Source of the DNA: Myxococcota bacterium
Lineage (GTDB): Bacteria > UBA10199 > JADFYH01
Direction: 5' to 3'
Length of the DNA: 64,000 bases
NCBI GenBank assembly: GCA_052034865.1
Contig: JBPOIC010000039.1
Location: 5,195-69,194, forward strand
Below the pieces are notes generated by a model. That model made no database searches. It was not told where the DNA came from and saw only the letters and a program-made list of their open reading frames with translations. This document shows, piece by piece, positions 8,395 to 32,894 of this stretch; within the stretch, counting starts at the first letter, position 1, and each line of letters opens with the position of its first letter. Position numbers and translations under genes: made by a program.

Positions 8395-8457
8395 TTTAGG
8401 TTTAACCATGAGAGCAATCACACAGGATTGCCAATCACTGCATTTCGCTCGCAAACT

Positions 8458-9441
8458 ATGAACATCTTCCTCACAGGTGCTTCTGGGTTTTTAGGCTTTC
8501 ATGTCGCCAGGCTTTTGGTGGAGCGGGGCCATCGCGTGATTGCCCTTGTTCGTCCGACCAGCCAGCGAAAGGAACTTAAGAAACTTCCCATTCAATGGAT
8601 CAAGGGAAGCCTGTCTGACCTTCGAGCCCTAAGACAAAGCCCAGAGCCTTTGGAGGCCGTGATTCATATCGCAGGGATTGTGAAGGCCTTGTCTAAAGAA
8701 GCCTTCTTTAAAACCAATGCACAGGGGACAGAGAATCTCGTTCAGGAAATTCTCTCTCGTCCCACTCTTCCTAAAGTTTTCATACAGATTTCAACCCTTG
8801 CGGTTCATAGTCCTACCCGCGATGGTCCTGATTTTTGTCTTCCTGCAGATCAATGCCACCCCGTCAGTCATTATGGCGAAAGCAAATTGGCTGGAGAGAA
8901 GAGCCTGGGTTTACTTAAAGAAAAAGTTCGTAGTGTTATTTTGAGACCTCCTGTGATTTATGGCCCCCAGGATAGGGAAGTCCTGCTCCTTTTTAAGGCA
9001 GCGCAAAAAGGTTTTCTGCCGCTTTACCGACGCGGGCAAAGCCAGTTTTCCATGTGTTACGTCACCGATGTTGCCCAGGCGATTATAACCCTTTTGGAAA
9101 ATCCTCCTCAGAAAGATGAAATATTTTGTCTGGATGATGGTGTCGTGCACACCTGGAAGAGTGTTGCTCAGGTCATTGCAAAGGCGATGAAGCGAAATCC
9201 GTTGCTACTTTCCATTCCACATTCCCTTTACTCCCTCGCGGCCCTGTGCTCGCAGGGCTATGCTCAGCTAAGACGTCAGCCGGTGGTTTTTACCGTCAAC
9301 AAGATGGAAGAAATTTCACAGCCCAGCTGGGTGTGTGGATATCAAAAATTGAATGAAAAAACAGGCTGGCGGCCTCAAGTGGATTTAAAACGGGGAATTG
9401 ATTCGACCTTGAGGTTTTATCGGGAGATGAAGTGGCTTTAA
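8458..9441 (+). CDS. NAD-dependent epimerase/dehydratase (extended SDR) family protein, candidate ceramide reductase CerR-like
   Basis: MNIFLTGASGFLGFHVARLLVERGHRVIALVRP is a Rossmann GxxGxxG. YGESK matches the SDR YxxxK region. Start set at ATG 8458 (ORF opens 8428). Confidence 0.65.
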   Translation: MNIFLTGASGFLGFHVARLLVERGHRVIALVRPTSQRKELKKLPIQWIKGSLSDLRALRQSPEPLEAVIHIAGIVKALSKEAFFKTNAQGTENLVQEILSRPTLPKVFIQISTLAVHSPTRDGPDFCLPADQCHPVSHYGESKLAGEKSLGLLKEKVRSVILRPPVIYGPQDREVLLLFKAAQKGFLPLYRRGQSQFSMCYVTDVAQAIITLLENPPQKDEIFCLDDGVVHTWKSVAQVIAKAMKRNPLLLSIPHSLYSLAALCSQGYAQLRRQPVVFTVNKMEEISQPSWVCGYQKLNEKTGWRPQVDLKRGIDSTLRFYREMKWL

Positions 9442-16354: not shown

Positions 16355-18064
16355 ATGAATACACTTCCTCGACATTCCAATCGTTATTTCAACGACTACC
16401 AGGCCACTCTTCAGGCAATTCATGTGGAGCGCTGGATGCAACAGGTGCTCGATCAGATTCATCTTGCTCAAAGTTTGTCCGATTGGGAGCAGGCGATCTA
16501 TCTCTGGAATGAGATCAAATGCCACATCGAGACGCATGCAGCCTCTGTCTCTTTGGCTTTTTATCGAAATACTCAGGATGAAAAGACTCAGGCAGAAGAG
16601 AAAAGATTCAATGAAGAAATTGAGCCCCCTTACAAAACCTTCAATGCCAAAATCCGCGAAAAAATTCTGAGTTCTCCTGTAAGAGCTGCCCTCGAAGAAA
16701 ATTTAGGTCAGCAATATTTTGTCTGGCTTCAGATTCAGCAGGATGCCTTTCATCCTCAAAATGTCGAGACTGAAACGGAAATTCACCTTCTTTTGTCTGA
16801 GTATACCAAGCTCACAGGAAATGCCGAGTTTGAGATCGCTGGCAAAACCTATCCCCTGGCTCATTATAAAAAATTCTCTTCTTCTCCCGATCCGGCCTTA
16901 CGCCGTGAAAGTCTTCAAAAATACAGTCAGTGGTTTTTAAATCACCGTGAAAAGCTCGAAGATATTTTTGAGCAATGTGTTCAGAAAAGATCGCAGATGG
17001 CTCAGGCAATAGGACATTCTTCCTACACTCCGCTGGGCTACCAAAAGATGGGCCGCGTCGATTATGGTCCTGACGAAGTGGCCGAGTTTCGAAAACAGAT
17101 TAAAGAAGCCGTGGTTCCCATTGCCACTCAAATTCGAGCTCAACAGGCAAAAAAAATAGGAACTTCAACTTTGGCGGTTTGGGACGGCGATTTCTTTCCT
17201 CAATGGAAGGTAGATCGCCTGAAAGTTGAGATTTCAGGTCAGGTCGGGGCTGGGCTTCGGGTCTATCAATCTTTATCCTCTGTTTTAGCCGGGCATTTTC
17301 AGAAAATGATCGATTATGATCTGATGGATGTTCCCGCCCGGCATGGAAAAGCACCCGGAGCTTTTTGTACGGAATTTTCGGATGCGCGCATGCCGTTTAT
17401 TTTTCTCAATAGTGTCAATGAAGTTTCAGACATTACCACCCTGCTGCATGAATGCGGTCATGCCTTCCAGGGTTGGGAAAGCCGCACGATTGATCTGCTG
17501 GAATTACGTGGTCCTACCTTAGAGGCTTGCGAGGTCCACTCGATGGGGATGGAGTTTCTGGCCCATCCTTATTACGAGGAGTTTTTGAGCCCTGAGAATG
17601 CGGCCAAATTCCGAAAATACCATCTGGCCGAAAGTTTGTTGCTGCTTCCCTACATTGCTGTGGTCGATGAATTTCAACACCGCATTTATACGGGAGAAGC
17701 AAAAGGACCAGAAGGAAGGGCGAGGGTTTGGGAGGAATTGGAAAAGCAGTATCTTCCAGCTCTCGATTATCAGGATCTTGCCATATGGCGAAAGTACCGC
17801 TGGTTACGCCAGCTGCATATCTTTCATAATCCTTTTTATTATATCGATTACGGTATCGCACTGGTGGGAGCTCTGCAGCTTTGGGTGCGCAGTATTCAGG
17901 ATAAGCAGGCGGCCCTGAGAGATTATCTCCATTTGTGCCAATTGGGAGGGACCTTGCCTCTAAGAGAATTTTTTAAGGCAGGAAATCTGAAACTGCCATT
18001 TGAGAAGGGAGTTTTGGATGAGCTTTTAAAAGCGGTGCTTCAATCCGAACCCATCCTCGATTAA
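16355..18064 (+). CDS. M3-family oligoendopeptidase (PepF-like)
   Basis: 569 aa. HExxH zinc motif LLHECGHAFQG with downstream E ligand region. Size and layout typical of M3B. Confidence 0.75.
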   Translation: MNTLPRHSNRYFNDYQATLQAIHVERWMQQVLDQIHLAQSLSDWEQAIYLWNEIKCHIETHAASVSLAFYRNTQDEKTQAEEKRFNEEIEPPYKTFNAKIREKILSSPVRAALEENLGQQYFVWLQIQQDAFHPQNVETETEIHLLLSEYTKLTGNAEFEIAGKTYPLAHYKKFSSSPDPALRRESLQKYSQWFLNHREKLEDIFEQCVQKRSQMAQAIGHSSYTPLGYQKMGRVDYGPDEVAEFRKQIKEAVVPIATQIRAQQAKKIGTSTLAVWDGDFFPQWKVDRLKVEISGQVGAGLRVYQSLSSVLAGHFQKMIDYDLMDVPARHGKAPGAFCTEFSDARMPFIFLNSVNEVSDITTLLHECGHAFQGWESRTIDLLELRGPTLEACEVHSMGMEFLAHPYYEEFLSPENAAKFRKYHLAESLLLLPYIAVVDEFQHRIYTGEAKGPEGRARVWEELEKQYLPALDYQDLAIWRKYRWLRQLHIFHNPFYYIDYGIALVGALQLWVRSIQDKQAALRDYLHLCQLGGTLPLREFFKAGNLKLPFEKGVLDELLKAVLQSEPILD

Positions 18065-18285
18065 TAATCAATCAGACTAAAGGATTCTACTCTTTCAATT
18101 TCTAAAATCGCAAAATCTTCTCCGTCGACAATTTTTAATGTTCCCCGATCTTCGTTAATTTCTTCCAGTATTCCTCGGTAAGAAATGTCAAAGGCGATGA
18201 TTTCGACCTTTTTTCCCTTGTAATCTATTAATCGAGTAATGGAGGCACCTTCATTGATCGGTTTCATGATCTGGATGGCATACAT
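18061..18285 (-). CDS. Hypothetical small protein (possible Sm-like fold)
   Basis: 74 aa, convergent with M3 peptidase (4-nt overlap). KKVEIIAFDISYRGILEEINEDRGTLKIVDGEDFAILEIERV loosely resembles an Sm barrel. No firm assignment. Confidence 0.25.
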   Translation of the reverse strand: MYAIQIMKPINEGASITRLIDYKGKKVEIIAFDISYRGILEEINEDRGTLKIVDGEDFAILEIERVESFSLIDY

Positions 18286-18573
18286 AAAGTGTGTGTGAAA
18301 AGTAAGAGATTGGAATTAATAATTATAACGAACTTCCGTTTATTTTATTGAATTATCCTTTTCAATCTCAAGTGAGTCAAGAAACTCGCGAGATGTTCAA
18401 TCAGAATGGTTTTGCTTCATTTTGAAATGAATTACCTTTAAATAACACCGAGATAGCTGACGCGTGGCGTTACAATGATTCGTTGACAATAAGGACCTTT
18501 GACCATACAAAATTGAACAACCTTACAACTGGGGAGGGGCTCAATGGGGTTGGAGAAGGAATTACTATTTCTA

Positions 18574-18900
18574 ATGAACCAAAGTGAGAAGCGTCTCTTC
18601 AAAAGGCTAGAAGTAGATCTTGAAGTTGAGATCTTAATTGATGGCTCCCCGGTTAAAGTGACCACCGCAAACATCAGTTGCGGCGGATTATTTCTCAAAC
18701 TTGATCCAGATCACTTAAAGGATCAAGACGATTTCTCAGTCATAATCTACCTTCCAAATCGTAAAAATCCTGTTGAAGTTGCAGCTCGAGTTTTAAGAAA
18801 AGAAAGCGACTCACGTGCTGGAGTTGCCCTCGAGTTTGATAGCCTCTACACAGACAATATACTCGCCATTGAGCAGTTCATTAAATCAAATCTCCATTAA
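18574..18900 (+). CDS. PilZ-domain protein (putative c-di-GMP receptor)
   Basis: RLFKR (RxxxR) at N-terminus and NISCGGLF (D/NxSxGG) motif. Lies about 85 nt upstream of nuoA. Confidence 0.65.
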   Translation: MNQSEKRLFKRLEVDLEVEILIDGSPVKVTTANISCGGLFLKLDPDHLKDQDDFSVIIYLPNRKNPVEVAARVLRKESDSRAGVALEFDSLYTDNILAIEQFIKSNLH

Positions 18901-18984
18901 ACATAATCCCCTCTTCTTGCTTTTCCCTCTTTGCCGACAATTCCCTTGACACCCAGGAATGCGTCCAATAACTCACGCAATTAA

Positions 18985-19359
18985 ATGAACAATCCCTACC
19001 TTCCCATCCTCATCCTGTTTGGAATTGCCTTTGTTTTTTCTGGTGCTTTTATTCTTCTTTCTTCTCTTCTGGGTCCCAAAAAACCAACTGCCTCAAAGCT
19101 TGATACTTATGAATGCGGAATGCCTCTCATTGGTGAACCTCGAAATCGCTTCTCCGTTAAATTTTTCCTCGTTGCGATCATCTTTATCCTGTTCGATGTG
19201 GAGGCCGTCTTTCTTTATCCCTGGGCCGTTTTATTCAAAGATTTTAAAGAAAAAGGAATGGGACCTTTTCTATTCTGGGAGATGAATGTCTTCCTGTTGA
19301 TTCTGGCTTTGGGGCTGTATTACGTGTGGAAACGCAAAGCCTTGGATTGGGAGAAATAA
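18985..19359 (+). CDS. nuoA: NADH-quinone oxidoreductase subunit A
   Basis: 124 aa, three TM helices, YECGMPLIGEP and FDVEAVFLYPWA motifs. Confidence 0.85.
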   Translation: MNNPYLPILILFGIAFVFSGAFILLSSLLGPKKPTASKLDTYECGMPLIGEPRNRFSVKFFLVAIIFILFDVEAVFLYPWAVLFKDFKEKGMGPFLFWEMNVFLLILALGLYYVWKRKALDWEK

Positions 19360-19444
19360 TTTCAGGCGATCGAGCACCCTGTGTCACTGTCCTTGTGTTC
19401 AGAAAAGGACAGTTCATCGATTGGTGACCGATTGCGTTTAAAGT

Positions 19445-19948
19445 ATGCATTCCGTTGCCGAAAACAATTTTTTAACGACAAAGCTCAGTGAGGTGATTGC
19501 CTGGGGGCGCAAGTTTTCCCTTTGGCCAATGCCCTTCGGAACTGCATGCTGTGCCATTGAGTTCATGGGGGCTGTGGATGCAGTTTACGATATCTCCCGC
19601 TTTGGCGCAGAGCTCGTCCGCTTTTCCCCTCGTCAATCCGATCTTCTACTGGTGCTTGGAACCATCAATTACAAGCAGGCACCTGTTCTCAAAAAAGTTT
19701 ATGAACAGATGTGCGATCCCAAGTGGGTGGTGGCAGTAGGAGCTTGTGCGACCTGTGGCGGATTTTACGACAATTATAGTGTGCTACAGGGAATCGATGA
19801 GATTATTCCCGTTGATGTTTATGTTCCTGGTTGTCCACCGAGGCCAGAATCCATTCTCAGAGGGATTGTTACCCTGCAGGAAAAAATTACGGCAGAGGCT
19901 AAAGGGGAGAAGATACAAAAACCATTTCCAATCAGTCAGCCTGCTTGA
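19445..19948 (+). CDS. nuoB: NADH-quinone oxidoreductase subunit B
   Basis: [21 protein letters not shown] (N2 cluster cysteines). Confidence 0.9.
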
Positions 19949-19997
19949 TGTGAGTGAATTTTTTGCGTTCCATAAAATAAGTGAAGGCTCTCTTTAA

Positions 19998-20489
19998 GTG
20001 AATGATATGAGCAAAGTGATCGATCGTTTTCAGCAGAAATTTTCAGAAAAGATTATTGGCTCTCATGCAAATCTTGGGGATGAGACCCTCGTCGTCTCCT
20101 CCGATGCTCTCATTGATATTCTTCAATTTGCAAAGCAAGACCCTGAGCTTCAGTTTGATATGTTGATGGATATTTGCGGGGTTGATTATCTGGGGCAAAC
20201 CCCGCGGTTTGAAGTAGTTTATCATCTCTATTCAGTTCCTAAAAACCATCGCCTTCGAATCAAAGTAAAAGTTCCGGAAGATAGCTGTCGGCTTCCTTCC
20301 TGCATTTCTCTCTGGAAATCAGCTGACTGGTTTGAGCGTGAAACCTGGGACATGATGGGAATTGAGTTTGAAAGTCATCCTTACTTAAGGCGACTGCTTT
20401 TATTTGAAGGATTCGAAGGGCATCCCTTGCGAAAAGATTATCAGATCGACAGACGTCAGAAAATTCCGGAGCCTTTAAAGAATCTCTAA
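19998..20489 (+). CDS. nuoC: NADH-quinone oxidoreductase subunit C
   Basis: 163 aa, 30-kDa subunit pattern (FDMLMDICGVDY ... ADWFERETWDMMGIEF). Confidence 0.85.
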   Translation: MNDMSKVIDRFQQKFSEKIIGSHANLGDETLVVSSDALIDILQFAKQDPELQFDMLMDICGVDYLGQTPRFEVVYHLYSVPKNHRLRIKVKVPEDSCRLPSCISLWKSADWFERETWDMMGIEFESHPYLRRLLLFEGFEGHPLRKDYQIDRRQKIPEPLKNL

Positions 20490-20542
20490 TTTGACAGGGC
20501 GATTTACGAACGGACCTTTTCTTGCGACCAAAATGAATCATT

Positions 20543-21745
20543 ATGATGCAACCTGTACTAGCCGAAGAAGGCGATCTTAAAACGAAAAAGATGTATTTAA
20601 ACATCGGACCCAACCATCCGGCGATGCACGGCACCTTGCGTCTGCTGGTTGAGCTCGATGGCGAGAATATTGTCAGCTCAATCGCCGAGATGGGCTATCT
20701 GCATCGTGGTTTCGAAAAACATTCTGAGACTGGCACTTATACTCAAGTCATTCCCTACACCGATCGACTCAACTACATCAGCCCTCTCATGAACAATGTC
20801 GGTTATTGCATGGCCGTCGAAAAACTTATCGGTTGTGAAATTCCCGAGCGTGCACAAGTCATCCGTCTCATTATTTGCGAGCTTTCACGTATTACCGATC
20901 ATCTTGTTTGTATTGGAACCAACCTGGTCGATATCGGTGCACTAACCAATTTTTGGTACTATTTTAATGTTCGTGAAAAGATTTACGACTTTATCGAGAA
21001 AATTTGCGGAGCGCGGCTTACGACCAACTACACCCGGATTGGTGGTCTTGCCCGTGATTTTCATCCCGAAGCTGCCGACGAATTAAAGATTATTTTAAAA
21101 GAAGTTCAGCGTGCGACCCAGGAAGTTCGAAATCTGATTTTAAAAAACAAAATTTTCTACGATCGAACTGCAGGGGTTGCACCTATTACTGCTGAAGAAG
21201 CGAAAAATTATGGATTCACTGGTCCCTGTTTGCGGGCGGCCGGGGTCGATTATGATGTTCGCAAGGCCCAACCCTATCTCAATTATCAGGATTATGATTT
21301 CGACATTCCCGTAGGTGAATCCGGCGATACTTATGATCGCTTTTTGGTACGCTTCGAAGAGATCCAACAGTCCAGTCGCATTATTGAGCAAGCCATTCCC
21401 AAGTTAAAGCCGGGTCCTGTCATGACCTCCGATCGCCGTGTGGCCCTGCCACCCAAGAGCGAAGTGTATACCAACATCGAAGCCCTCATGAATCACTTCA
21501 AGCTCATTTTCGAAGGTGTGCGTCCTCCTGCAGGAGAGGTTTATTCAGCAACTGAAGCAGCGAACGGAGAGCTGGGATTTTATATTGTAAGCGATGGGAG
21601 TACGCGTCCTTACCGTGTGAAATGCCGTCCCCCGTGTTTTCCCCTGTATGCGGCTTATCCAAAGATGATTCAGGGATCCATGATCGCCGATGCGATTGCG
21701 GTTCTGGGAAGTATCAATATTATTGCGGGAGAGTTAGACCGGTAA
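20543..21745 (+). CDS. nuoD: NADH-quinone oxidoreductase subunit D
   Basis: 400 aa, GPNHPAMHGTLRL... typical 49-kDa subunit. Confidence 0.9.
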   Translation: MMQPVLAEEGDLKTKKMYLNIGPNHPAMHGTLRLLVELDGENIVSSIAEMGYLHRGFEKHSETGTYTQVIPYTDRLNYISPLMNNVGYCMAVEKLIGCEIPERAQVIRLIICELSRITDHLVCIGTNLVDIGALTNFWYYFNVREKIYDFIEKICGARLTTNYTRIGGLARDFHPEAADELKIILKEVQRATQEVRNLILKNKIFYDRTAGVAPITAEEAKNYGFTGPCLRAAGVDYDVRKAQPYLNYQDYDFDIPVGESGDTYDRFLVRFEEIQQSSRIIEQAIPKLKPGPVMTSDRRVALPPKSEVYTNIEALMNHFKLIFEGVRPPAGEVYSATEAANGELGFYIVSDGSTRPYRVKCRPPCFPLYAAYPKMIQGSMIADAIAVLGSINIIAGELDR

Positions 21746-21793
21746 GTGATTCAAAATCTCTTTATTTAAGTTTCAAAATTTCCAAAGCTCTTT

Positions 21794-22267
21794 ATGTCTA
21801 TCGAGTTTTCACCCGAAAATAAAAAGAAGTTCGAAGAAACCCTGACCCATTATCCGACCAGGCGGGCTGCGCTGTTACCGACGCTCTGGATCGCCCAACG
21901 GCAGTTTGGTTGGATTTCGCCCGAGGTCATGGAATACATCGCGTCTTTACTCGAGATTCCACCCGTGAAGGTTTACGAAGTCGCAACCTTCTACACCATG
22001 TACAATACAAAGCCGGTCGGAAAATATCACCTGCAGGTGTGCCGGACTTTATCTTGTGAGCTGTGCGGAAAAGAAAAAATTGTTAACCACCTTCAAAGCA
22101 AATTGGGGATCAAGGCGGGCGAAACGACGGCGGATGGTCGATTTACTTTAACCGAAGTTGAATGCCTAGGCTCGTGCGGAACCGCACCCATGATGCAGGT
22201 CAATGATGATTATTTTGAAAATCTCACGCCTGAAAAGATCGACACGATTTTAAAAGGGCTTGAGTAA
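21794..22267 (+). CDS. nuoE: NADH-quinone oxidoreductase subunit E (2Fe-2S)
   Basis: CRTLSCELCG ... CLGSCGTAPMMQVND cysteine pattern. Confidence 0.9.
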   Translation: MSIEFSPENKKKFEETLTHYPTRRAALLPTLWIAQRQFGWISPEVMEYIASLLEIPPVKVYEVATFYTMYNTKPVGKYHLQVCRTLSCELCGKEKIVNHLQSKLGIKAGETTADGRFTLTEVECLGSCGTAPMMQVNDDYFENLTPEKIDTILKGLE

Positions 22268-23534
22268 AGTTATGGAACGTATCCTAACCGAACATTGGGG
22301 CAAAAAAGATTCGCACACACTGGCCTTTTATCTGGAGCATGGCGGTTATCAAACCCTGTCCAAGGTTTTTAAGATGAAGCCGGATGAAGTGATCGAAGAA
22401 GTTAAAAAATCCGGCCTGCGGGGGCGTGGAGGTGCTGGATTTGCGACGGGTATGAAATGGAGTTTTGTTCCCAAAGACAATTCCAAACCGCATTATCTTT
22501 GCATCAATGCAGATGAAAGCGAGCCCGGTACTTTTAAAGATCGCTACATCCTCGAAAATACCCCACATCAACTTATTGAAGGGGCCATCATTTGTTCATA
22601 TGCCATCGGGGCCAAAGCTGCTTACTGCTACATTCGGGGAGAATTTGTTTTTCCAGCCGATCGTATGGAAGCTGCGGTTCAGGAAGCCTACCAGGCAGGG
22701 TATCTGGGAAAAAACATTCAAGGCAGTGGAGTCGATCTTGATCTTTACGTTCACCGTGGAGCGGGCGCTTACATTTGCGGTGAAGAAACAGCCCTGCTCG
22801 AATCACTCGAAGGAAAACGTGGCTATCCACGCTTAAAACCCCCATTTCCGGCCCTTGTCGGTTTGTTCGGCTGCCCTACTGTCATCAATAACGTCGAAAC
22901 CCTGGCCGTTACTCCTTATATTCTCAACAACGGCGGTGAGGCTTACCGAAAATACGGCACGGAAAAAAGCCCAGGCACCAAGCTTTTCTGTGTTTCAGGT
23001 CATGTCAATAAACCTGGTAATTACGAAGTGCCTCTGGGTTATCCACTCAAAAAACTCATCTACGAAGATTGCGGTGGGATCAAAGACGGCAAGACCTTGA
23101 AGGCTGTGATTCCAGGCGGATCTTCTGTCCCTGTCCTGACAAAAAAAGAGGCCGAAGAGGTAAATCTCGATTACGAAGCCCTTCAGTCTGCAGGTTCGAT
23201 GCTCGGATCGGGAGGTGTGATTGTTATCGATGAAACCACATGCATGGTCAAAAGCCTGCTCAACCTCGCCCATTTTTATTCTCATGAATCCTGCGGTCAA
23301 TGTGCTCCCTGTCGTGAAGGAACCGGCTGGTCCTATAAAATTCTCAAGCGGATTGAAAATGGGGAAGGGACCGAGGCCGATCTGGAACGTCTGCTGCAAA
23401 ACGCCGATCACATGTCCGGAAAAACAGTGTGTGTGCTTTCCGATGCGCTCGCCATGCCGATCCAAAGTTTTTTAAAGCGCTTTCGTCATGAGTTTGAAGA
23501 ACATGTAAAGTTGAAGAAGTGCCCTATGAAATAA
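22260..23534 (+). CDS. nuoF: NADH-quinone oxidoreductase subunit F (FMN, 4Fe-4S)
   Basis: GLRGRGGAGF (NADH/FMN site), ESCGQCAPCREG (N3 cluster). Confidence 0.9.
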   Translation: MSKVMERILTEHWGKKDSHTLAFYLEHGGYQTLSKVFKMKPDEVIEEVKKSGLRGRGGAGFATGMKWSFVPKDNSKPHYLCINADESEPGTFKDRYILENTPHQLIEGAIICSYAIGAKAAYCYIRGEFVFPADRMEAAVQEAYQAGYLGKNIQGSGVDLDLYVHRGAGAYICGEETALLESLEGKRGYPRLKPPFPALVGLFGCPTVINNVETLAVTPYILNNGGEAYRKYGTEKSPGTKLFCVSGHVNKPGNYEVPLGYPLKKLIYEDCGGIKDGKTLKAVIPGGSSVPVLTKKEAEEVNLDYEALQSAGSMLGSGGVIVIDETTCMVKSLLNLAHFYSHESCGQCAPCREGTGWSYKILKRIENGEGTEADLERLLQNADHMSGKTVCVLSDALAMPIQSFLKRFRHEFEEHVKLKKCPMK

Positions 23535-23538
23535 TACT

Positions 23539-23862
23539 GTGAATCTTAATTTTGAATGGGATCATCCCAAGGTAGCTGAAAATATAAAAAAGCATGGCGT
23601 TTCTTTTTAGGAAGCTTCCAGCGCTTTATTAGATCCTCTTTCCTTAGCTTTCCCAGATAGTGGCCATTCTGCGTCAGAGTATCGGTTTCTGACTGTAGAG
23701 GAATCTACACAATTGAGATTACTGGTCGTCGCACACACTGACAGAAATGGAAAAATCCGGATCATCAGTGCCAGAAAAGCAACTCGTAAAGAACGTAGAT
23801 TTTTTTATGAAGAAAAAAGAATTAAAAAAACGAATTGCGGAGTGAGTACGATTTTTCCCTGA
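23539..23862 (+). pseudogene. brnT: brnT-like (DUF497) toxin gene with in-frame TAG
   Basis: GTG 23539: VNLNFEWDHPKVAENIKKHGVSF, then TAG at 23608-23610, then same frame continues EASSALLDPLS...LLVVAHTDRNGKIRIISARKATRKERRFFYEE to TGA 23860-62. FEWD...KHGVSF and IRIISARKAT are BrnT signatures. Confidence 0.6.
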
Positions 23863-24029
23863 TGAAGGGCGGCGTACAAGGGAAATACATGAAGGCTTAC
23901 AAGAAGGAAAGTAACGTTGTCTTGCTTGAACCCGATGTTACGAAGGCTTTTCCCAATGCAGATTCTGTTAATCAAGTTTTAAGAGACCTCATGAAGCTTG
24001 CTCGGCTTCGTCTGAGTCACAGCCGTTGA
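23835..24029 (+). CDS. brnA: BrnA-like antitoxin (RHH/CopG-like)
   Basis: 64 aa from TTG, SEYDFSLMKGGVQGKY...LEPDVTKAFPNADSVNQVLRDL matches BrnA EYDFS...GKY...LDxDV...VNxALR pattern. Overlaps brnT 3-prime end out of frame; stop overlaps nuoG start region. Confidence 0.6.
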   Translation: MRSEYDFSLMKGGVQGKYMKAYKKESNVVLLEPDVTKAFPNADSVNQVLRDLMKLARLRLSHSR

Positions 24030-24037
24030 GTAGTTTT

Positions 24038-25543
24038 ATGCCAACCCTAAAAATAGACAACCAAGATATCACCGTAGAACCAGGGACCACCGTCATCGAA
24101 GCGGCTAAAAAGCTCGGCGTGGAGATCCCTCATTTTTGCTACCATCCCAAACTTAGCATTTCGGGAAACTGCCGTATGTGTTTGGTAGAGGTGGAAAAAT
24201 TTCCAAAACCGCAAATTTCCTGCTCGCTCGTAGCCACCGACGGTATGGTCGTCCATACCCAATCCGAAAATGCAAAAAAGTGGCGCAAAAATGTCCTCCA
24301 GTTTATCCTCATCAATCATCCTCTCGATTGTCCGGTCTGCGATCAGGCGGGCGAGTGCAAGTTGCAAAATTACTATCTGAGCGAGTCGGTCAAGCTGAGT
24401 GAATTTCAGGAAGAAAAAGTTCACAAGCCAAAAAAAATCAGACTTGGTCCTCAGGTCATGCTCGATGACGAGCGCTGTATCATGTGTTCGCGCTGTATCC
24501 GCTTTTGCGATGAGATCACAAAGACCTCCGAGTTGGGATTCACTCAACGGGGAGATCACATCGAGCTGCGTCCTTTTCCTGGCAAAGAACTCAACAATCC
24601 CTATTCGATAAATACTGTTGATATTTGCCCAGTCGGTGCACTTACCAGCTCAGATTTTCGCTTTAAAAAACGGGTGTGGTTTTTAAAAACAGCCGATTCA
24701 ATTTGCTCGGGATGTTCGCGCGGATGCAATCTTCGTCTGCAATATGAAAATGAGACGGTTTATCGCTACCTGCCTCGTCAAAACGAAGCCGTGAATTCTG
24801 TTTGGCTCTGTGATGCCGGTCGTTTGAGTTATAAGCAGATCAATGAAAATCGTGTGATCACCTCTGAAAAACGAATCGAAGGTCAGCTTACGCGCATTCA
24901 TCCTGAACAGGCGATCAGTGAAGTAACAGCTCTTATGAAAAAAGCGGCTGGAAAACCAATCCTGGTCTTGGGAAGTGCGCAAGGTTCAAACGAAAATAAT
25001 CTGGCCTTAAAGAAATTAGCCGCACTTGTGGGCAGTGATCAAGTGGCACCAATGCTTGCCTACTCTGGACGTGAAGTTGCAAATCCTTACGAAGATGATT
25101 TTCTGATCAAGGCCGATAAGAACCCTAACACGCGCGGAGTAGAACATTTGGGTTTCCAGAAATTGAATCATGTTTCTTCCTCAGAAATTTGCCTCATTCT
25201 TGGAGAAGTTTCCGAACCGGATCTTAAGAAAATTGCAGAAACAAAACCTTCCTGCGTAATCTATTTTGCTACCCACCGAGACGCCACGACCGGGATTGCC
25301 GATTACCTTTTCCCCATCACGATATTTGCCGAAGAGTCGGGGACTTTCATGAATTTTGAAGGACGTGTGCAGAAATTCAATCCTGGGCCTAAATCTCGTG
25401 GTCAAATGAAGCCCGCCTGGCAATGGATAAAAGAGTTGGCTCAGGGGTTGGGAGTGGTCTGGAATCTTCATCCTGCTGCTTTGCTTCAGGAAGGGTTTGG
25501 TTTAAGTGATGCCGATCTTGGAGCCGAAGGCAAGAGGCTATGA
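24038..25543 (+). CDS. nuoG: NADH-quinone oxidoreductase subunit G (short form)
   Basis: 2Fe-2S (CYHP...GNCRMC), HPLDCPVCDQAGEC, CIMCSRCIRFC and CPVGALT clusters. About 500 aa, so the C-terminal molybdopterin-like domain is abbreviated. Confidence 0.8.
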   Translation: MPTLKIDNQDITVEPGTTVIEAAKKLGVEIPHFCYHPKLSISGNCRMCLVEVEKFPKPQISCSLVATDGMVVHTQSENAKKWRKNVLQFILINHPLDCPVCDQAGECKLQNYYLSESVKLSEFQEEKVHKPKKIRLGPQVMLDDERCIMCSRCIRFCDEITKTSELGFTQRGDHIELRPFPGKELNNPYSINTVDICPVGALTSSDFRFKKRVWFLKTADSICSGCSRGCNLRLQYENETVYRYLPRQNEAVNSVWLCDAGRLSYKQINENRVITSEKRIEGQLTRIHPEQAISEVTALMKKAAGKPILVLGSAQGSNENNLALKKLAALVGSDQVAPMLAYSGREVANPYEDDFLIKADKNPNTRGVEHLGFQKLNHVSSSEICLILGEVSEPDLKKIAETKPSCVIYFATHRDATTGIADYLFPITIFAEESGTFMNFEGRVQKFNPGPKSRGQMKPAWQWIKELAQGLGVVWNLHPAALLQEGFGLSDADLGAEGKRL

Positions 25544-26109
25544 GTTCTGCGAGGGTGCGGCATTTTTTTCTGGGGGTGATGCTCGTGACGGTTGTTCTGG
25601 TTTCTCCTTCTGCATTTTCGCAACTCTCCCGACTGCTATCCTCCAAAGAAATTACGGCCGTGATCTTGTCTCCGATGTTCGGCATTCCAGGAGATAAAGA
25701 CGGCCAATGGCTTTTAAACGATGAAGAAGCCTTGCAGGCCGAGAAAATTCTTCAAGGCTGCATCCTTGAAAAAACAAAGCAAACCCAGAATCCCAACGAA
25801 AATCGGTGGGAAACCATTCGGCGGGAAATTCAGGTGAGGGGTTGGTCCGAGATTCAAAAAAATCTTTCGGATTATTTGCGGCAATACGCCGGAGTCACAC
25901 GTGAGAAGAAAAAACTTGTTTGGATAAACGCTTTTCACAAAAACACCTTGTCTATTTTTGGGAAGACGAACGAAGCTTTTGGATTGAGTCTTCCTCGCTG
26001 GCAGAGAGAAGTGATTTACGCCAATGATGGTGGCACCTATTTTTTTAATGCCTTCGTCGATTTGAAAGTCGGCAGTTGCGAGTCGCTTCAGTTTAATGGA
26101 GGCGCTTGA
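25540..26109 (+). CDS. Hypothetical secreted/membrane-anchored protein inserted between nuoG and nuoH
   Basis: 189 aa, N-terminal hydrophobic helix FFLGVMLVTVVLVSPSAF, no recognisable domain. 4-nt overlap with nuoG stop. Confidence 0.35.
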   Translation: MSSARVRHFFLGVMLVTVVLVSPSAFSQLSRLLSSKEITAVILSPMFGIPGDKDGQWLLNDEEALQAEKILQGCILEKTKQTQNPNENRWETIRREIQVRGWSEIQKNLSDYLRQYAGVTREKKKLVWINAFHKNTLSIFGKTNEAFGLSLPRWQREVIYANDGGTYFFNAFVDLKVGSCESLQFNGGA

Positions 26110-26302
26110 AGGAGATGCGGTTCAAAATGCCTAAGCTCTTGGCAGGATTAATGGTTTTGATAGTGCTTTATCTGTTTTGTTTTAAGCTTGCCCTCTGGCG
26201 ATGTCATTCAGGTTGGGCTGGATCCCACTGCCATACGCTGCTTGGATCCGGGGGGCACAACGTCCTGCAGGCTTTTGGTCATCTACATTAGGAGAAACGA
26301 CT

Positions 26303-27562
26303 TTGCTACTCCTCCTCTTAAAAATTGTGGTTCCTTTTTTTGTGATTCTCAACATCATCCCTTTGCTGATTTGGCTGGAGCGTAAAGGTTCGGCCTATAT
26401 TCAGGATCGTCGCGGACCCAATCGCGCAGGCATTTTAGGTATTCGCCTTGGAGGAATGATTCACTCGCTCACCGACGTGGTGAAACTGCTTTTTAAAGAG
26501 GATATTATTCCCGCACGCGTGAATCGGTTTTTCTATATTCTTGCTCCTTTTATTTCGATGAGTGTGGCGTGTGTAACCTTTGCTGTTCTTCCTTTTGGCG
26601 ATGTGGTGCACTGGAACGGGGAGGCCATCACCCTACAGGCCGCTGATTTGAATGCCGGAATTTTATATATCTTTGCCATTGCTTCACTCGGTGTTTATGG
26701 CGTGATGCTGGCCGGTTGGAGTTCCGACAACAAATATTCTCTTTTGGGCGGACTTCGCTCCTCGGCCCAAATGATCAGCTATGAGATTGTTCTTTCGCTT
26801 GCCGTGATCAGTGTTTTGATGATGGCAGGCTCACTGGAACTTTCGGCGGTTGTGACCGATCAATCCGAAAAAGTTTGGGGATGGAATTTTTTGCGTCAGC
26901 CGATTGCGTGTGTGCTTTTCATGATTGCGATGTTTGCCGAAACCAATCGTTTGCCCTTTGATCTTCCAGAAGGTGAATCCGAGCTGGTGGCAGGATATCA
27001 TCTCGAATACAGCTCGATGAAATTTGCCCTCTTTTTCATGGCCGAATATGCCAACATGATCATTGCTTCGGCCGTCTTAACCTCCCTGTTTTTTGGTGGC
27101 TGGCAGGTTCCTTTTTTAAGCACCGAAACGCTTCGGGGAAATGCAGACTTGATTTTGAAAATCCTTCTGGGTGGCGGAATTCTTGTGCATCTACTGGGAG
27201 GCGGCGCCTTGTTCAAACATGGGCTAAACAATGTTCGAGTAAAAAAATGGGGTGATATTCGCGATTATGAGCCCGTGATTTTGGGAGTGGGAATCGGAGG
27301 TTTAGGAATTATCCTGATCGGAGCTCTTGCCTATTTCTGGACTACGTCGTTGGGTGAAAACGGAGCCTCAGTCGTTACAGGGGTGTTACAGGCCGTTACC
27401 TATATTTTAAAAATCCTGTTTTTCTGCTGGGTGTTTATATGGGTACGCTGGACGCTTCCGCGTTTTCGTTATGATCAGCTCATGAAGCTGGGCTGGAAGT
27501 ATATGCTTCCTTTAGCGCTCATCAATATTTTAGTGACGGGATGGGTGATGTTAGCGATTTAA
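26303..27562 (+). CDS. nuoH: NADH-quinone oxidoreductase subunit H with internal/C-proximal insertion
   Basis: LIWLERKGSAYIQDRRGPNRAG ... VRWTLPRFRYDQLMKLGWK are canonical NuoH. Start proposed at TTG 26303 after ggaga RBS (ORF opens 26201). About 80 extra residues before the last helix. Confidence 0.8.
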   Translation: MLLLLLKIVVPFFVILNIIPLLIWLERKGSAYIQDRRGPNRAGILGIRLGGMIHSLTDVVKLLFKEDIIPARVNRFFYILAPFISMSVACVTFAVLPFGDVVHWNGEAITLQAADLNAGILYIFAIASLGVYGVMLAGWSSDNKYSLLGGLRSSAQMISYEIVLSLAVISVLMMAGSLELSAVVTDQSEKVWGWNFLRQPIACVLFMIAMFAETNRLPFDLPEGESELVAGYHLEYSSMKFALFFMAEYANMIIASAVLTSLFFGGWQVPFLSTETLRGNADLILKILLGGGILVHLLGGGALFKHGLNNVRVKKWGDIRDYEPVILGVGIGGLGIILIGALAYFWTTSLGENGASVVTGVLQAVTYILKILFFCWVFIWVRWTLPRFRYDQLMKLGWKYMLPLALINILVTGWVMLAI

Positions 27563-28866
27563 ATCGATGCCATTATCTTTCTTAGGGTAGTGCCATCTTT
27601 TGCTTCTTCAGGAACAAAAGAAGAGAAGAGTTCAATTTCTGATAGAATAATTTCCTTACGAAAGTTCTCTCCTAAATCCTTTTTATTCCACTGCTCCCTT
27701 AAACTATTCCAGATGAGTTCTTTTTGAGTATCGGGCCTTTCCTGTTCCATTCGCAATGCTTCCATCAGAGTCGAGATGGCGCTTAAATCTTCAGACTTCC
27801 CTAAAATTTCAATAGCAAATTTTCTGATTTCAACATTTTCACTTAAGCAAAGCCCTAAGAGAATTTGATGGGTATACGATGGATTTTGCTGGGTGAGTTT
27901 TAAAAAGAGCTCCTGCAGTTGAGGTGAATAAGTTTTTAGAAATCTTTCTCCCCGAGACTGTTTCAACGAAGCTTCCCATTTTTGTGAAAGAAGGCGGGCA
28001 AACCTGAAAGGATCTTCTTCTTTTTCGAAGAGTGATTTGAAAACGGTTTGATCGAGTTTTTGAATGACCGTTTCCTGCCAGGTAATATCCCAGGAGAAAT
28101 CTTTCGTGGAGATGAGACTTGCTAATGATTCTTCGGCACACTGAAGATCGCGTGCATCGCCGATTTCAATGAGGAGTGAAATCAGCACAGGAAGGCTGAG
28201 AGTAGGACTATAATGAAAATCGTAATGTTCATACTCAAAGCGACTTAAATTCGACTGCCACTCATCAAACAGAGTAGAATCGGTCAGTGCGCATGAATGC
28301 TGAAATAAAAGATGAACCCCAAGCTCCAGGGCTTTTTCAATCTCTGAAGTCATGGGCCGTCCCAAAAATCGAATCAACTCTACCGCTCGGTTTCGTTCAC
28401 TAAACCGTGCATTGCTTAAGTTAATTAAAAGATCATGGGCTAGCTTATGAGTTTCAGGACTTTGCTCCCCGATCTGTCCCCATTTTTTAAGCAGATGAAA
28501 AATCTCTATTCTTTTTTTCAGTGATGGATAGGAAGACAGCAAAGGAGATGAAATGTCCTGCGCCATATTCTTTTTGAAAAGATAGACTCGCCTTTCAAAG
28601 GCCAGGTTGCTTCGATTGGGATCTCCCAAAAGGCGATCGGCCAATTTTTCAAACCCCAGTTCATTAAGTTTTTGGCGGATTTCCGGATTGCGCAGGTCGG
28701 CATCCGGTTGAGTGGCCGAAATCAGGTAGGTCTTGAGTGGAGCGGTGTCGGGAAATAAATCAGTGGGAAGAATATTTTCTGCTTCTTCAGGTGTCAGCCC
28801 GTCTTTATCTGACAAGGCAGCCAGAAGCTTCTCAACACGGTCTCCTCCAATTCGCAACTCTGCCAT
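27559..28866 (-). CDS. HEAT-repeat protein, antisense to the nuo genes, in the position normally held by nuoI
   Basis: 435 aa. Repeated helical pairs such as NVEIRKFAIEILGKSEDLSAISTLMEAL resemble PBS-lyase/HEAT repeats. No catalytic motif recognised. Confidence 0.45.
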   Translation of the reverse strand: MAELRIGGDRVEKLLAALSDKDGLTPEEAENILPTDLFPDTAPLKTYLISATQPDADLRNPEIRQKLNELGFEKLADRLLGDPNRSNLAFERRVYLFKKNMAQDISSPLLSSYPSLKKRIEIFHLLKKWGQIGEQSPETHKLAHDLLINLSNARFSERNRAVELIRFLGRPMTSEIEKALELGVHLLFQHSCALTDSTLFDEWQSNLSRFEYEHYDFHYSPTLSLPVLISLLIEIGDARDLQCAEESLASLISTKDFSWDITWQETVIQKLDQTVFKSLFEKEEDPFRFARLLSQKWEASLKQSRGERFLKTYSPQLQELFLKLTQQNPSYTHQILLGLCLSENVEIRKFAIEILGKSEDLSAISTLMEALRMEQERPDTQKELIWNSLREQWNKKDLGENFRKEIILSEIELFSSFVPEEAKDGTTLRKIMASI

Positions 28867-29102
28867 CTGAAAAACCCTCCCCCGGATTTACAGCAAGCAC
28901 GCTGTTACAGTGTTTTATAAGGTAGTAATGAAGGCTCAATTGCTTCTAACCACAATGGGTATTATATTTTTTCCTTAAGGTCTCATTGTGGAGAAGCACT
29001 TGAAGCTTTATTTCTGATGAATTGCCTTGAATAAAATTGTGGTATTCGTTAGTGAATGGCCATTCAAAAAGCGTTCGAATTGTAGCCCTATCCCAAAAAA
29101 AT

Positions 29103-29603
29103 ATGCAACCGATTCTCTTCTATCTTTTTGGCGGCTTGGCCCTTGCAACGGCGCTGGGCGTCATAGTCTTTAAAAATCCCATTTCCTCTGCTTTCTCTCT
29201 CATCGTTTCTTTTTTTGCCATGGCGGGTTTATATGCCATGCTCGATGCCCACTTTTTGGCGATCATTCAAATCCTGGTTTATGCAGGTGCCATTATGGTG
29301 CTCTTTATTTTTGTCATCATGCTCTTGAATCTTCAGGGGGATGAATTGAAAGAGCGTCCTTTTCATCCTTATTTTAAAGGTCTTGCGGCTTTATTGCTCC
29401 TGGGGTTTGGAGGTGTGCTGTATCTTGTCCTGGGACCGATGAATACTTCAATGAGAGAAGTGGGCGATGGTTTCGGTAGCATTAAAGAGGTAGGGACTGA
29501 GCTATTTACACGTTACTGGTTTGCTTTCGAATATACCTCGATTTTGTTACTGGTTGCCCTGATTGGTGGAGTTGTATTGGCAAAAAGGGAGTTAAAACCA
29601 TGA
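29103..29603 (+). CDS. nuoJ: NADH-quinone oxidoreductase subunit J
   Basis: MQPILFYLFGGLALATALGVI... typical NuoJ; ATG 29103 (ORF opens 29037). Confidence 0.85.
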   Translation: MQPILFYLFGGLALATALGVIVFKNPISSAFSLIVSFFAMAGLYAMLDAHFLAIIQILVYAGAIMVLFIFVIMLLNLQGDELKERPFHPYFKGLAALLLLGFGGVLYLVLGPMNTSMREVGDGFGSIKEVGTELFTRYWFAFEYTSILLLVALIGGVVLAKRELKP

Positions 29604-29905
29604 CCCTCGAGATCTCACACTATCTCATTTTGAGTGCCGCACTTTTTACCTTGGGCCTTGCGGGCCTGGTGATCCGAAGAAATATTCTGGTTATCTTCAT
29701 GTCCATTGAGCTTTTGCTCAATGCAACCAATCTGGCTTTTGTTACCTTTTCCCGCTTTCGCGGAAGCATTGATGGCCAGATCGCCTCTTTTTTTGTGATT
29801 GCCGTCGCCGCCGCTGAAGCCGCTGTTGGTTTGGCGATCGTGATTGCCATCTTCAGAAACCGGGGAACAGTGAAGGTGGATGAGTTGAACATGATGAAGA
29901 GATAG
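29600..29905 (+). CDS. nuoK: NADH-quinone oxidoreductase subunit K
   Basis: 101 aa, three TM helices, 4-nt overlap with nuoJ. Confidence 0.9.
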   Translation: MTLEISHYLILSAALFTLGLAGLVIRRNILVIFMSIELLLNATNLAFVTFSRFRGSIDGQIASFFVIAVAAAEAAVGLAIVIAIFRNRGTVKVDELNMMKR

Positions 29906-29919
29906 AGATTGTAAAAATA

Positions 29920-30096
29920 GGTGCCGATAAGGTTCTGACAGCCATTTTAAGAGGAGTCTCCGACTCCAGTCTTCACTTTCTGGATATTTGTCGTTTTCTT
30001 AAATAACTGGGTTTTGAGGAAAAGATTCGTGGAAGACATCATATCTTTTCCAAAGAGGGAATTGAGGAAATCATCAATCTTCAGCCTGCCGGATAA
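29920..30096 (+). pseudogene. hicA-like toxin remnant (single in-frame TAA, truncated)
   Basis: ...KVLTAILRG...FLK, then TAA(30004-06), then LGFEEKIRGRHHIFSKEGIEEI. GF..R.kGSHHxF..(E/P)G resembles the HicA/YcfA core. No start codon, C-terminus missing. Confidence 0.3.
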
Positions 30097-30161
30097 AAAA
30101 CGAAGCCATCAGGTTAAGCAGGTGTGAGCTATTGTGTTGAAATTACAAGTCGGAGATCTGA

Positions 30162-30421
30162 ATACATAAATCCGAAATCATTATTTACTGGAGCAAAGAA
30201 GATCATAGTTTAGTCGCAGATGCTCCTGAGTTGCCAGGTTGTATGGCGAATCCATCTATAAGAAAGCCCTCCAGAACGCAGATTATTCGGGAATGGATTT
30301 AAACTGCAAAAGAGTTGGGATGCGAAATTCCCGAGCCAAAAGGAAGGTTAATGTTTGCTTAAAAAGAACTTCCGAAATTTTATATTTTAACTCACTCCTT
30401 CATCCTCTCATTAGAAACTGA
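30162..30421 (+). pseudogene. hicB-family (UPF0150) antitoxin gene, frameshifted
   Basis: IIIYWSKEDHSLVADAPELPGC (30162-30242) carries the UPF0150 signature V.(E/D)LPGC. The usual continuation G(D/E)T/S..EAL.NA appears in the +2 frame as GESIYKKALQNAD (ORF 30239-30421). Confidence 0.5.
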
Positions 30422-30443
30422 GGAAGGGAGCCACGAATAAATT

Positions 30444-32498: not shown

Positions 32499-32894
32499 AT
32501 GGAGAATTTGCCAGTCGTAGGAGAGCAGAATAATCCATCAGGGAGCATCAATCCTTTTCAGATGCTCAACTGGTTGGTGGGAATCGTCTTAATCGGGATA
32601 GGTTGTGCTTTAAGTTACTGGTTGTTTCGAGCGATCGGCGATTTTTTATATGCCCCTGAAAAAATCGCTCTGCTCGGAAAAATTTTACAAACTCCCTCGG
32701 GAGATCAATCTATTCGCATTATATTAAATGGATCTCCGAATGGTACCGGTCAGGGAGTGACCGTTCAGTACAATGATTTTGTGAAATACTTTGTCTTTTT
32801 GGTGGTGGGTTTTATTTTGTTTGGATCGATTGGACGGATTATCTCGGCTTTTTTTAGTGCTGGAATTAAAGCCCTGACAGGAAGATTGCAGTAA
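32499..32894 (+). CDS. Hypothetical two-TM membrane protein inserted between nuoL and nuoM
   Basis: 131 aa, two hydrophobic helices (LNWLVGIVLIGIGCALSYWLF; YFVFLVVGFILFGSIG), no known motif. Confidence 0.35.
   Translation: MENLPVVGEQNNPSGSINPFQMLNWLVGIVLIGIGCALSYWLFRAIGDFLYAPEKIALLGKILQTPSGDQSIRIILNGSPNGTGQGVTVQYNDFVKYFVFLVVGFILFGSIGRIISAFFSAGIKALTGRLQ

Follow-up and report, generated by a model that had tools for sequence, protein, structure and literature searches.

The closest described counterparts of the locus considered here are the BrnTA toxin–antitoxin (TA) modules, which were described in 2012 and are summarized in two accounts (PMC10714953; PMC11980606). In these systems a toxin of Pfam family PF04365, a ribonuclease (RNase) of the BECR/RelE-like type, is encoded first and is followed by a small antitoxin. 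The RNase activity of BrnT is reported to need a Lys–His pair near the N-terminus together with a C-terminal Glu (PMC10714953, citing Heaton 2012), and the BrnA antitoxin possesses a C-terminal ribbon–helix–helix (RHH) DNA-binding domain (PMC11980606). Here we describe a 491-nucleotide (nt) cassette of the same general plan, at positions 23539–24029 of a 64,000-nt stretch of DNA from a Myxococcota bacterium (assembly GCA_052034865.1, contig JBPOIC010000039.1, forward strand, 5,195 to 69,194), the whole of which we call the window. The cassette shares with canonical BrnTA the PF04365 toxin, the toxin-first gene order, the Lys–His and Glu residues, and a small downstream partner, the C-terminal part of which may be RHH-like. 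Unlike canonical BrnTA, its toxin is interrupted at codon 24, its partner goes unrecognized by the Pfam models PF14384 and PF12441 and resembles BrnA only remotely (hhalign probability of 76%), and it has no upstream region of its own to hold a promoter or operator, for it is wedged between nuoF and nuoG of the complex I (nuo) operon. We consider it quite likely that this is a decaying type II TA cassette, vertically inherited at the nuoF/nuoG junction from an ancestor shared with a sister lineage.

Two nearer comparisons help to place the cassette. The BrnT modules with BrnA/CopG partners on annotated plasmids (e.g., Photobacterium toruni pCECT9189-1 and a Leptolyngbya BL0902 plasmid; L178 and L179) have an overlapping antitoxin of about 70 amino acids (aa), as in the family of the window partner; in both, an N-terminal (E/D)YDFS motif precedes a strand and a helix. 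However, the plasmid partners do pass the thresholds of the Pfam BrnA/CopG models (30–35 bits) and have a GIPYQ-type loop, neither of which holds for the window partner, and their modules are free-standing whereas the window cassette is nested in nuo. Nearer still is a cassette in the uncultured lineage with the most similar NuoF (loci L085 and L086), hereafter the sister cassette, which occupies the same junction in the same orientation with the same tight spacing; relative to it, the window copy has lost the complete, TGA-terminated toxin reading frame and the canonical ATG start of the partner.

The complex I operon lies on the forward strand of the window, from the start of nuoA at 18985 to the end of nuoN at 36076. 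The upstream neighbor of the cassette, nuoF (22272–23534, forward strand), encodes the NADH-binding 51-kDa subunit and ends with TAA at 23532–23534; its product bears the Pfam Complex1_51K, SLBB, and NADH_4Fe-4S domains, as annotated on an identical contig from Logan, a separate assembly of run SRR34217545. The toxin frame (23539–23862, forward strand) opens with a GTG only 4 nt past the nuoF stop and comprises 107 codons, among them an internal TAG. From GTG 23539, frame 1 translates as (M)NLNFEWDHPKVAENIKKHGVSF ahead of the TAG at 23608–23610, which is codon 24 and in frame, and beyond it the frame stays open for a further 83 codons as EASSALLDPLSLAFPDSGHSASEYRFLTVEESTQLRLLVVAHTDRNGKIRIISARKATRKERRFFYEEKRIKKTNCGVSTIFP (EASSALLDP...LLVVAHTDRNGKIRIISARKATRKERR...), until the TGA at 23860–23862. 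The body of the antitoxin (23835–24029, forward strand) is a 64-aa open reading frame (ORF) from TTG 23835 to TGA 24027–24029, in frame 3, which is open from 23826; it reads RSEYDFSLMKGGVQGKY...LLEPDV...SVNQVLRDL and keeps the core motifs EYDFS...GKY...NVVLLEPDV..FP...VN..LR. Downstream, a short nuoG of 501 aa (24038–25543, forward strand) most likely starts with the ATG at 24038, 8 nt past the partner stop, which is also the start called on the Logan contig and aligns with relatives beginning MPTLKID. An earlier, preliminary description of this DNA thus had the layout right to the base as regards the GTG, the TAG and the continuing frame, as well as in placing the cassette in line between nuoF and nuoG with neither gene broken; its statement that the antitoxin ends where nuoG begins holds as to the two adjoining, but most likely not as to the exact start of nuoG.

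With nuoF 4 nt away on one side and nuoG 8 nt away on the other, the cassette has no upstream intergenic region. A consensus scan for sigma-70-type sites placed no promoter-like site upstream of the toxin and found no excess of such sites, detected no terminator-like site and no better-than-chance promoter-like site anywhere in the nuoF–nuoG interval, and put its best promoter-like site upstream of nuoA. Searches for flanking direct or inverted repeats, as marks of integration, returned only short matches at chance level. The 64-kb window harbors no BrnT gene other than that of the cassette.

The family of the toxin is clear. When the stop is masked, Pfam BrnT_toxin PF04365 (DUF497) aligns with the toxin frame over the full profile (1–77 of 77) and scores 90.7 bits (E = 7.4e-26; cut-off, 34.5 bits), far beyond chance. 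The two segments separated by the TAG also align individually with the corresponding stretches of the profile, the C-terminal segment scoring 57.8 bits by itself. The assignment to BrnT with a single nonsense codon, made earlier without database searches, is thereby borne out. A solved 94-aa BrnT-like “toxin” (PDB 7vd7_A) matches at E = 2e-12, and the 1615 database homologues found at E ≤ 1e-3 are typically 90–97 aa long, the best of them being 55–66% identical. In an alignment of 121 sequences (120 relatives plus the sister copy), every invariant residue of the family is retained in the window toxin, namely Trp7, Lys11, Asn15, His19, Glu25, Glu47, Arg49, Arg74, Ala78, and Arg79, as are Lys18, His19, and Glu85, the counterparts of the residues that RNase activity is reported to need (PMC10714953), whose columns are 95–100% conserved. 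Codon 30 (23626–23628) specifies Leu in both the window and the sister, where 96% of the family have Phe. In Acidovorax Aave_1720, a Phe-to-Ala substitution abolished both toxicity and RNase activity (PMC10714953); judged by its spacing from the Lys–His pair rather than by alignment, position 30 appears to correspond to this critical Phe. The shared Leu30 of the two nuo-embedded copies may indicate that the toxin of this lineage is attenuated.

Against this well-preserved family background stand several lesions. Codon 24 is Glu in 77% of the family, with Gln and Tyr as minorities, and His (CAT) in the sister; the TAG lies one step from GAG, CAG, or TAT/TAC. Codon 54 (23698–23700) is GAG, specifying Glu, where 98% of the 121 relatives, including the sister, have Gly, and this Gly54Glu exchange is probably a second damaging change, considering the conservation of the site. 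A T7 run at 23800–23806 carries an extra Phe codon that the sister and the family lack (RRFFYEE here, RRFYEE there). Further downstream, an A7 run at 23824–23830 is the site of a net difference of −2 nt in the DNA alignment, where the sister reads ATT-TGA-AAA-GG. Since this difference falls on the toxin TGA of the sister, it has both removed the toxin stop and put the antitoxin start out of frame with the antitoxin body; the toxin frame consequently acquires a 15-codon out-of-frame tail that runs into the antitoxin. Translation from GTG 23539 would end after 23 residues, right past the catalytic Lys–His pair, so that no folded toxin could result, and starts internal to the frame, such as TTG 23713, would yield a fragment without Lys18 and His19. 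With no uninterrupted toxin ORF of about 90–100 aa present, the gene is, by its reading frame, a pseudogene of the BrnT family and not a working member.

The partner gene has been altered at its start. In its relatives, the antitoxin ATG lies within the C-terminal Tyr–Glu–Glu codons of the toxin, giving a gene overlap of 20–23 nt (20 in L085 and L086, 23 in L004), and the protein begins MKKKEKSKDELRPEYD or MKKTKFEKDPLKAEYD at this ATG; database relatives are 71 aa long and start with MKKKEKSKDELRPEYD. The window has the equivalent ATG at 23807, likewise within the toxin Y–E–E codons and inside TTTTATGAAGAA, but the reading frame that it opens (23807–23845, forward strand, frame 2) runs for 12 codons only, as MKKKELKKRIAE and then a stop, while the conserved body, (K)NELRSEYDFS..., occupies the following frame. 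Counted from the ATG, the E–Y–D codons end after 46 nt in the window and after 48 nt in L085, L086, L003, and L004. The partner ORF would therefore be an N-terminally truncated body, which could be made at most as 64 aa from TTG 23835. No recognizable ribosome-binding site precedes this TTG, which is uninformative, as most genes of the window have no Shine–Dalgarno motif. The antitoxin ORF had been taken as intact in the preliminary description, a view that the out-of-frame ATG and the TTG-started body do not sustain.

The same description had called the antitoxin BrnA-like, as part of a brnT/brnA cassette, and had proposed searches with DUF497/BrnT and BrnA profiles; the former did match and the latter did not. 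The window partner has no match in Pfam or NCBIfam, with neither BrnA (PF14384) nor CopG_antitoxin (PF12441) detected at E ≤ 1; the sister partner has no BrnA_antitoxin or CopG_antitoxin match in Pfam; and for the 112 members of the partner family that were aligned, a threshold of E ≤ 0.1 still brought up neither Pfam BrnA_antitoxin nor CopG_antitoxin nor any RHH model. When this 112-member alignment was compared by hhalign with five canonical BrnA/CopG partners, a probability of 75.9% (E = 2.3e-5) was obtained over 56 columns spanning the EYDFS motif, the strand, and the first helix. In the AlphaFold2 (AF2) model, residues 30–66 form, with confidence, a strand-like segment and then two helices, and the fold is probably RHH. 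By these profile comparisons, the partner is outside the Pfam BrnA family as now defined and distantly BrnA-like; to judge from its family and position, it probably works like BrnA.

The partner family is itself of interest. A HMMER search with an eight-member profile against 1.84 billion representative proteins retrieved 5376 representatives at E ≤ 1e-3 and 1991 at E ≤ 1e-10, which points to a very large family of BrnT partners (more than 5000 representatives at 50% identity) that current Pfam and NCBIfam models do not recognize. Partner-type genes lie immediately downstream of, and overlap, BrnT in the window, in L085/L086, and in L004, and several family members are fused to N-terminal remnants of BrnT. 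In L004 (104–418), the antitoxin adjoins a frameshifted BrnT remnant, and in the proteins P0126, P0251, and P0259 it is fused to the first 15–60 residues of a BrnT (MEFEWD...). It thus seems frequent elsewhere that an antitoxin of this family outlives its toxin.

How did a broken TA cassette come to lie within this operon? The NuoF proteins most similar to that of the window, at 77–84% identity, come from uncultured metagenome-assembled genomes labeled “bacterium” or “Deltaproteobacteria bacterium”. The closest, P0130 (84%), occurs in two assemblies, GCA_013558295.1 and GCA_964638405.1 (L085 and L086), whose nuoF/nuoG junction holds an orthologous intact copy: a complete 92-aa BrnT ending at its own TGA, and a 75-aa partner starting at the canonical ATG, with toxin and partner overlapping by 20 nt and with spacers of 7 nt on each side of the cassette. 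Between window and sister, identity is 84% for NuoF, 79% for NuoE, and 74.5% for NuoG, and 61.5–63% for the toxin and 59.7–64.6% for the partner. Among the 121 aligned sequences, the sister toxin is the closest relative of the window toxin; each partner has the other as its best match; rare residues are common to both cassettes (Ala29 and Leu30 in the toxin, SVNQVLR in the partner); and the NuoF tree places the two hosts as sister taxa. The proposal that the toxin was inactivated after its integration is thus upheld by the nearest relative, in which this junction holds the same cassette but the toxin is intact.

Sequence divergence further suggests that the cassette is old. The proportion of synonymous differences (pS) between window and sister is 0.77–0.85, and thus saturated, in the cassette genes and in nuoE, nuoF, and nuoG alike, while the proportion of nonsynonymous differences (pN) is 0.27 for both cassette genes versus 0.11–0.17 for nuoE, nuoF, and nuoG. 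A pN of 0.27 alongside saturated pS argues for purifying selection on the cassette over most of the divergence, and the saturation of synonymous sites combined with the shared cassette indicates that the cassette pre-dates a deep split and was inherited. The lesions of the window copy, in turn, are late events, as evidenced by the frame that is still open 83 codons past the TAG and by the high profile score. Comparison with related nuoF–nuoG regions, which had been suggested as a means to date the insertion, thus yielded the intact sister cassette but no date: the use of nonsynonymous-to-synonymous rate ratios (dN/dS) for dating either the insertion or the lesions is impossible, as pS lies beyond Jukes–Cantor correction in all genes. 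The mean identity to the family is 55.3% for the window toxin versus 57.9% for the sister toxin, and 46.5% versus 46.8% for the partners.

We therefore favor decay of an inherited cassette, a history that may be pictured as follows. In an ancestor, a BrnT-family RNase toxin and an overlapping, distantly BrnA-like antitoxin would have become lodged in sense orientation between nuoF and nuoG, and would then have been passed down vertically from this ancestor to the window lineage and at least one further uncultured lineage. In its intact form, the toxin would start 4–7 nt past the nuoF stop and nuoG would follow 7–8 nt past the antitoxin stop, a spacing which suggests that the pair most likely had no promoter of its own and was transcribed within the nuo mRNA. 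By analogy with the family (PMC10714953; PMC11980606), the partner would most likely neutralize the RNase toxin by direct binding, and its C-terminal half might bind DNA. In the window, the TAG, Gly54Glu, the extra Phe, and the net loss of 2 nt would subsequently have turned the 491 nt into a passenger of the nuo transcript.

Several points weigh against this account of the cassette. Only one sister lineage was found with it, and the antitoxins come out as reciprocal best matches by a small margin (59.7% against 58.2% and 59.3%). Synonymous saturation prevents both the insertion and the lesions from being dated, and co-transcription with nuo is a suggestion from the spacing. The body of the antitoxin is no more diverged from the family than that of the sister, by the mean identities given above, and it keeps every nearly invariant family residue that can be checked. 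The antitoxin may accordingly still function from the TTG start, such that decay, which is plain in the toxin, is only suggested for the antitoxin. In addition, the two assemblies that contain the lesions probably derive from one sequencing run, which makes a population variant or a consensus error formally possible.

The alternative that survives best grows out of these points. Only the toxin may be dead, the antitoxin being kept as an orphan that is translated from TTG 23835 and could either regulate by binding DNA or guard against related BrnT toxins, whether these are encoded elsewhere or arrive on mobile elements. Its 64-aa body is open, retains the conserved core of the family, and has diverged from the family to the same degree as the sister partner; the roughly 10 N-terminal residues that were lost belong to the non-conserved part of the family; and other antitoxins of the family sit beside degraded or truncated BrnT genes, as in L004, P0126, P0251, and P0259. 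However, the canonical start is lost, the TTG has no recognizable ribosome-binding site (though neither do most genes here), the window has no other BrnT gene for such an antitoxin to counter, and recent lesions would leave the frame open and the divergence normal even without selection. We regard retention of the antitoxin as possible yet rather unlikely.

Less probable still is that the window and the sister gained similar BrnT cassettes independently, or by recombinational replacement, at a junction that acts as an insertion hot spot. Repeated insertion clearly happens in the clade, where nuo junctions hold many different inserts, including a GIY-YIG gene and three unrelated ORFs at nuoF/nuoG itself. 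Moreover, the two toxins, at about 62% identity, are barely closer to each other than to the BrnT proteins of other phyla, for which local alignments give up to about 66%. What makes us doubt independent gain is the concurrence of reciprocal best matches for both cassette genes, the shared rare residues Ala29/Leu30 and SVNQVLR, the same orientation and spacing, and the position of the hosts as sister taxa in the NuoF tree.

It is very improbable that the cassette is truly intact, with the TAG and the −2 nt being errors of sequencing or assembly or else minority alleles, and the module working as in the sister. Such a module is evidently viable at this junction, as the sister shows; the indel lies beside the homopolymers T7 and A7, which are error-prone on some platforms; and the evidence comes from assemblies. 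On the other hand, independent departures coincide within about 240 nt (the TAG substitution, Gly54Glu at a site conserved to 98%, the extra codon, and the −2 nt), the TAG is a base substitution and not a homopolymer error, and the flanking nuo genes are free of frame errors. The Logan contig, 15,269 nt in length, is 100% identical to window positions 16999–32267, thus over 15.3 kb with the TAG and the indel included, which excludes an assembler artefact as the source of the TAG. Finally, decoding of the TAG by readthrough, a suppressor tRNA, or recoding to give full-length toxin, perhaps at a deliberately low level, is hardly credible despite the 83 open codons and the preserved catalytic residues, as TAG is a normal stop here (of the 38 open frames in the window with 200 or more codons, 7 end in it), a search of the entire window against Rfam at gathering thresholds found no RNA element, an open frame past the TAG is equally well explained by recent inactivation, and the product would bear Gly54Glu and a 15-residue out-of-frame tail. 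Stop-codon readthrough had been offered as an alternative in the preliminary description. Genome-wide reassignment of TAG was also considered and is rejected on the same 7 of 38 frames.

Decay of an inherited cassette being the reading that we prefer, we turn to its genomic setting. A nonsense mutation in a BrnT gene is nothing special in itself: the turnover of TA modules is constant, and a surviving antitoxin is often found next to the remains of a toxin. The element is thus an ordinary degraded TA pseudogene, in a setting that is unusual and recurrent. We surveyed nuo operons in ten lineages of the clade, reached via the protein database and exact-protein look-ups, and found that the integration belongs to a recurrent pattern rather than standing alone. 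The sister lineage (L085/L086) has the intact BrnT pair at nuoF/nuoG and empty junctions otherwise. L087 (3473–3996) and L088 (399–922) have at nuoE/nuoF an addiction-module antitoxin (TIGR02574/Unstab_antitox) followed by a ParE toxin, all other junctions being empty. L175 carries at nuoE/nuoF (4453–4997) a ParE pair homologous to that of L087 (53% and 38% identity), at nuoG/nuoH (7773–8280) a DUF4160 protein matching the NCBIfam toxin DhiT (E = 7e-27; 93.9 bits, cut-off 100) and, after it, a DUF2442 protein, and at nuoD/nuoE a 127-aa ORF. The NuoF proteins of L087, L088, and L175 are 79–82% identical to that of the window. Like the window cassette, these ParE/TIGR02574 and DhiT-like DUF4160/DUF2442 pairs are two-gene units in sense orientation with spacers of a few nt; unlike it, they belong to unrelated families, occupy other junctions, and appear intact.

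Further lineages hold other inserts. A 94-aa GIY-YIG gene is found at nuoF/nuoG in L089 (5327–5611) and L090 (1886–2170). L092 has three unrelated ORFs at nuoF/nuoG (5282–6519), two ORFs at nuoD/nuoE (2695–3364), and at nuoG/nuoH (8054–8675) a pair of 69 and 152 aa, the latter protein weakly matching a DUF6036 nucleotidyltransferase. In L091 (3305–3601), a 98-aa ORF with a signal-peptide-like start lies at nuoE/nuoF. Most inserts of L089–L092 have no family match. L093, L094, and L176 have no insert at any tabulated junction, and the nuoF/nuoG spacer is 1–29 nt in the lineages that are insert-free there (L087, L091, L093, L094, and L176).

The window itself has several inserts. In addition to the BrnT pseudogene and its partner at nuoF/nuoG, it has a 189-aa ORF at nuoG/nuoH, a reverse-strand 435-aa ORF at nuoH/nuoJ, a 131-aa membrane ORF at nuoL/nuoM, and a 538-nt gap at nuoK/nuoL (29906–30443), where relatives have a 1-nt spacer. 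The gap has no long ORF, and within it we find the pieces of a probable decayed HicA/HicB-like cassette (29908–30301, forward strand). HicA-like pieces at 29908–30124 read ...FLDICRFLK, an in-frame TAA, and LGFEEKIRGRHHIFSKEG..., followed after a frameshift by ...KKRSHQVKQV in another frame; HicB-like pieces at 30162–30301 read IIIYWSKEDHSLVADAPELPGCMA.... When the frames are stitched together, Pfam HicA_toxin matches with E = 2e-4 and 21.8 bits, below its cut-off of 27, and HicB_lk_antitox with E = 0.1. To judge from these matches, the gap is probably a second decayed TA cassette of the same operon.

In the background outside the clade, sampled by NuoF scans of genome and metagenome contigs that yielded only relatives of 63% identity or less and were dominated by the universal GAYICGEE pattern, a nuoG was detectable downstream of nuoF in 71 species-representative loci and directly follows nuoF in 67 of these. 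The remaining four have a single secreted-protein gene between nuoF and nuoG, encoding 278–554 aa with a signal-peptide-like start (L036, 5257–6663; L074, 5300–6964; L081, 5336–6172; L083, 2375–3538), and none has BrnT; their hosts are unrelated species, one of the Pyrinomonadaceae and three Bacteroidota. The nuoF/nuoG junction is thus tolerant of insertions in other phyla too, and those inserts are not TA modules. A literature search on TA modules inside nuo operons found nothing relevant. The nqo/nuo clusters of Paracoccus denitrificans and Rhodobacter capsulatus are known from the literature of the 1990s to contain scattered unidentified reading frames, which set a precedent for extra small ORFs in complex I operons, in lineages unrelated to that of the window; to our knowledge, these frames have never been described as TA modules.

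Taken across the clade, the nuo operons contain at least three well-supported TA types in sense orientation (BrnT, ParE/TIGR02574, and DhiT-like/DUF2442), two weaker TA candidates (HicAB-like and DUF6036-like), and the GIY-YIG gene, at five different junctions overall, and one of these nested cassettes, the BrnT one, was retained through saturating synonymous divergence. A tentative idea, which we put forward with more doubt than conviction, is that the complex I operon of this uncultured, “Deltaproteobacteria”-labeled clade acts as a long-term safe harbor for promoter-less TA cassettes and other small genes. These would land in spacers of a few nt, ride on the transcription of the operon, be shielded because imprecise excision would harm the presumably essential neighbors, persist to synonymous saturation, and then decay one by one. 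If their retention were selected, nuo-nested modules could couple the expression of the respiratory chain to growth arrest or phage defense. The clade provides a natural series of empty, intact, and decaying junctions in which to follow how selfish two-gene cassettes enter and persist in a conserved multi-gene operon, whether they are transcribed with no promoter of their own, and whether they affect the expression of the complex I genes downstream.

Several further features of the window may be recorded. The protein of 189 aa between nuoG and nuoH (25540–26109) has a signal-peptide-like N-terminus, the 435-aa ORF between nuoH and nuoJ (27559–28866, reverse strand) has a weak HEAT-repeat match, and the 131-aa ORF between nuoL and nuoM (32499–32894) is hydrophobic; none of these has a significant Pfam match. 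Between nuoH and nuoJ, no nuoI is present in the window (26201–29603) or in the related operons examined (e.g., L087, 6961–8722), nuoI not having been sought elsewhere; the called genes run in both from NADHdh (NuoH) directly to Oxidored_q3 (NuoJ). Beyond the operon, on the reverse strand, a very long ORF of 2883 aa extends over 41291–49942.

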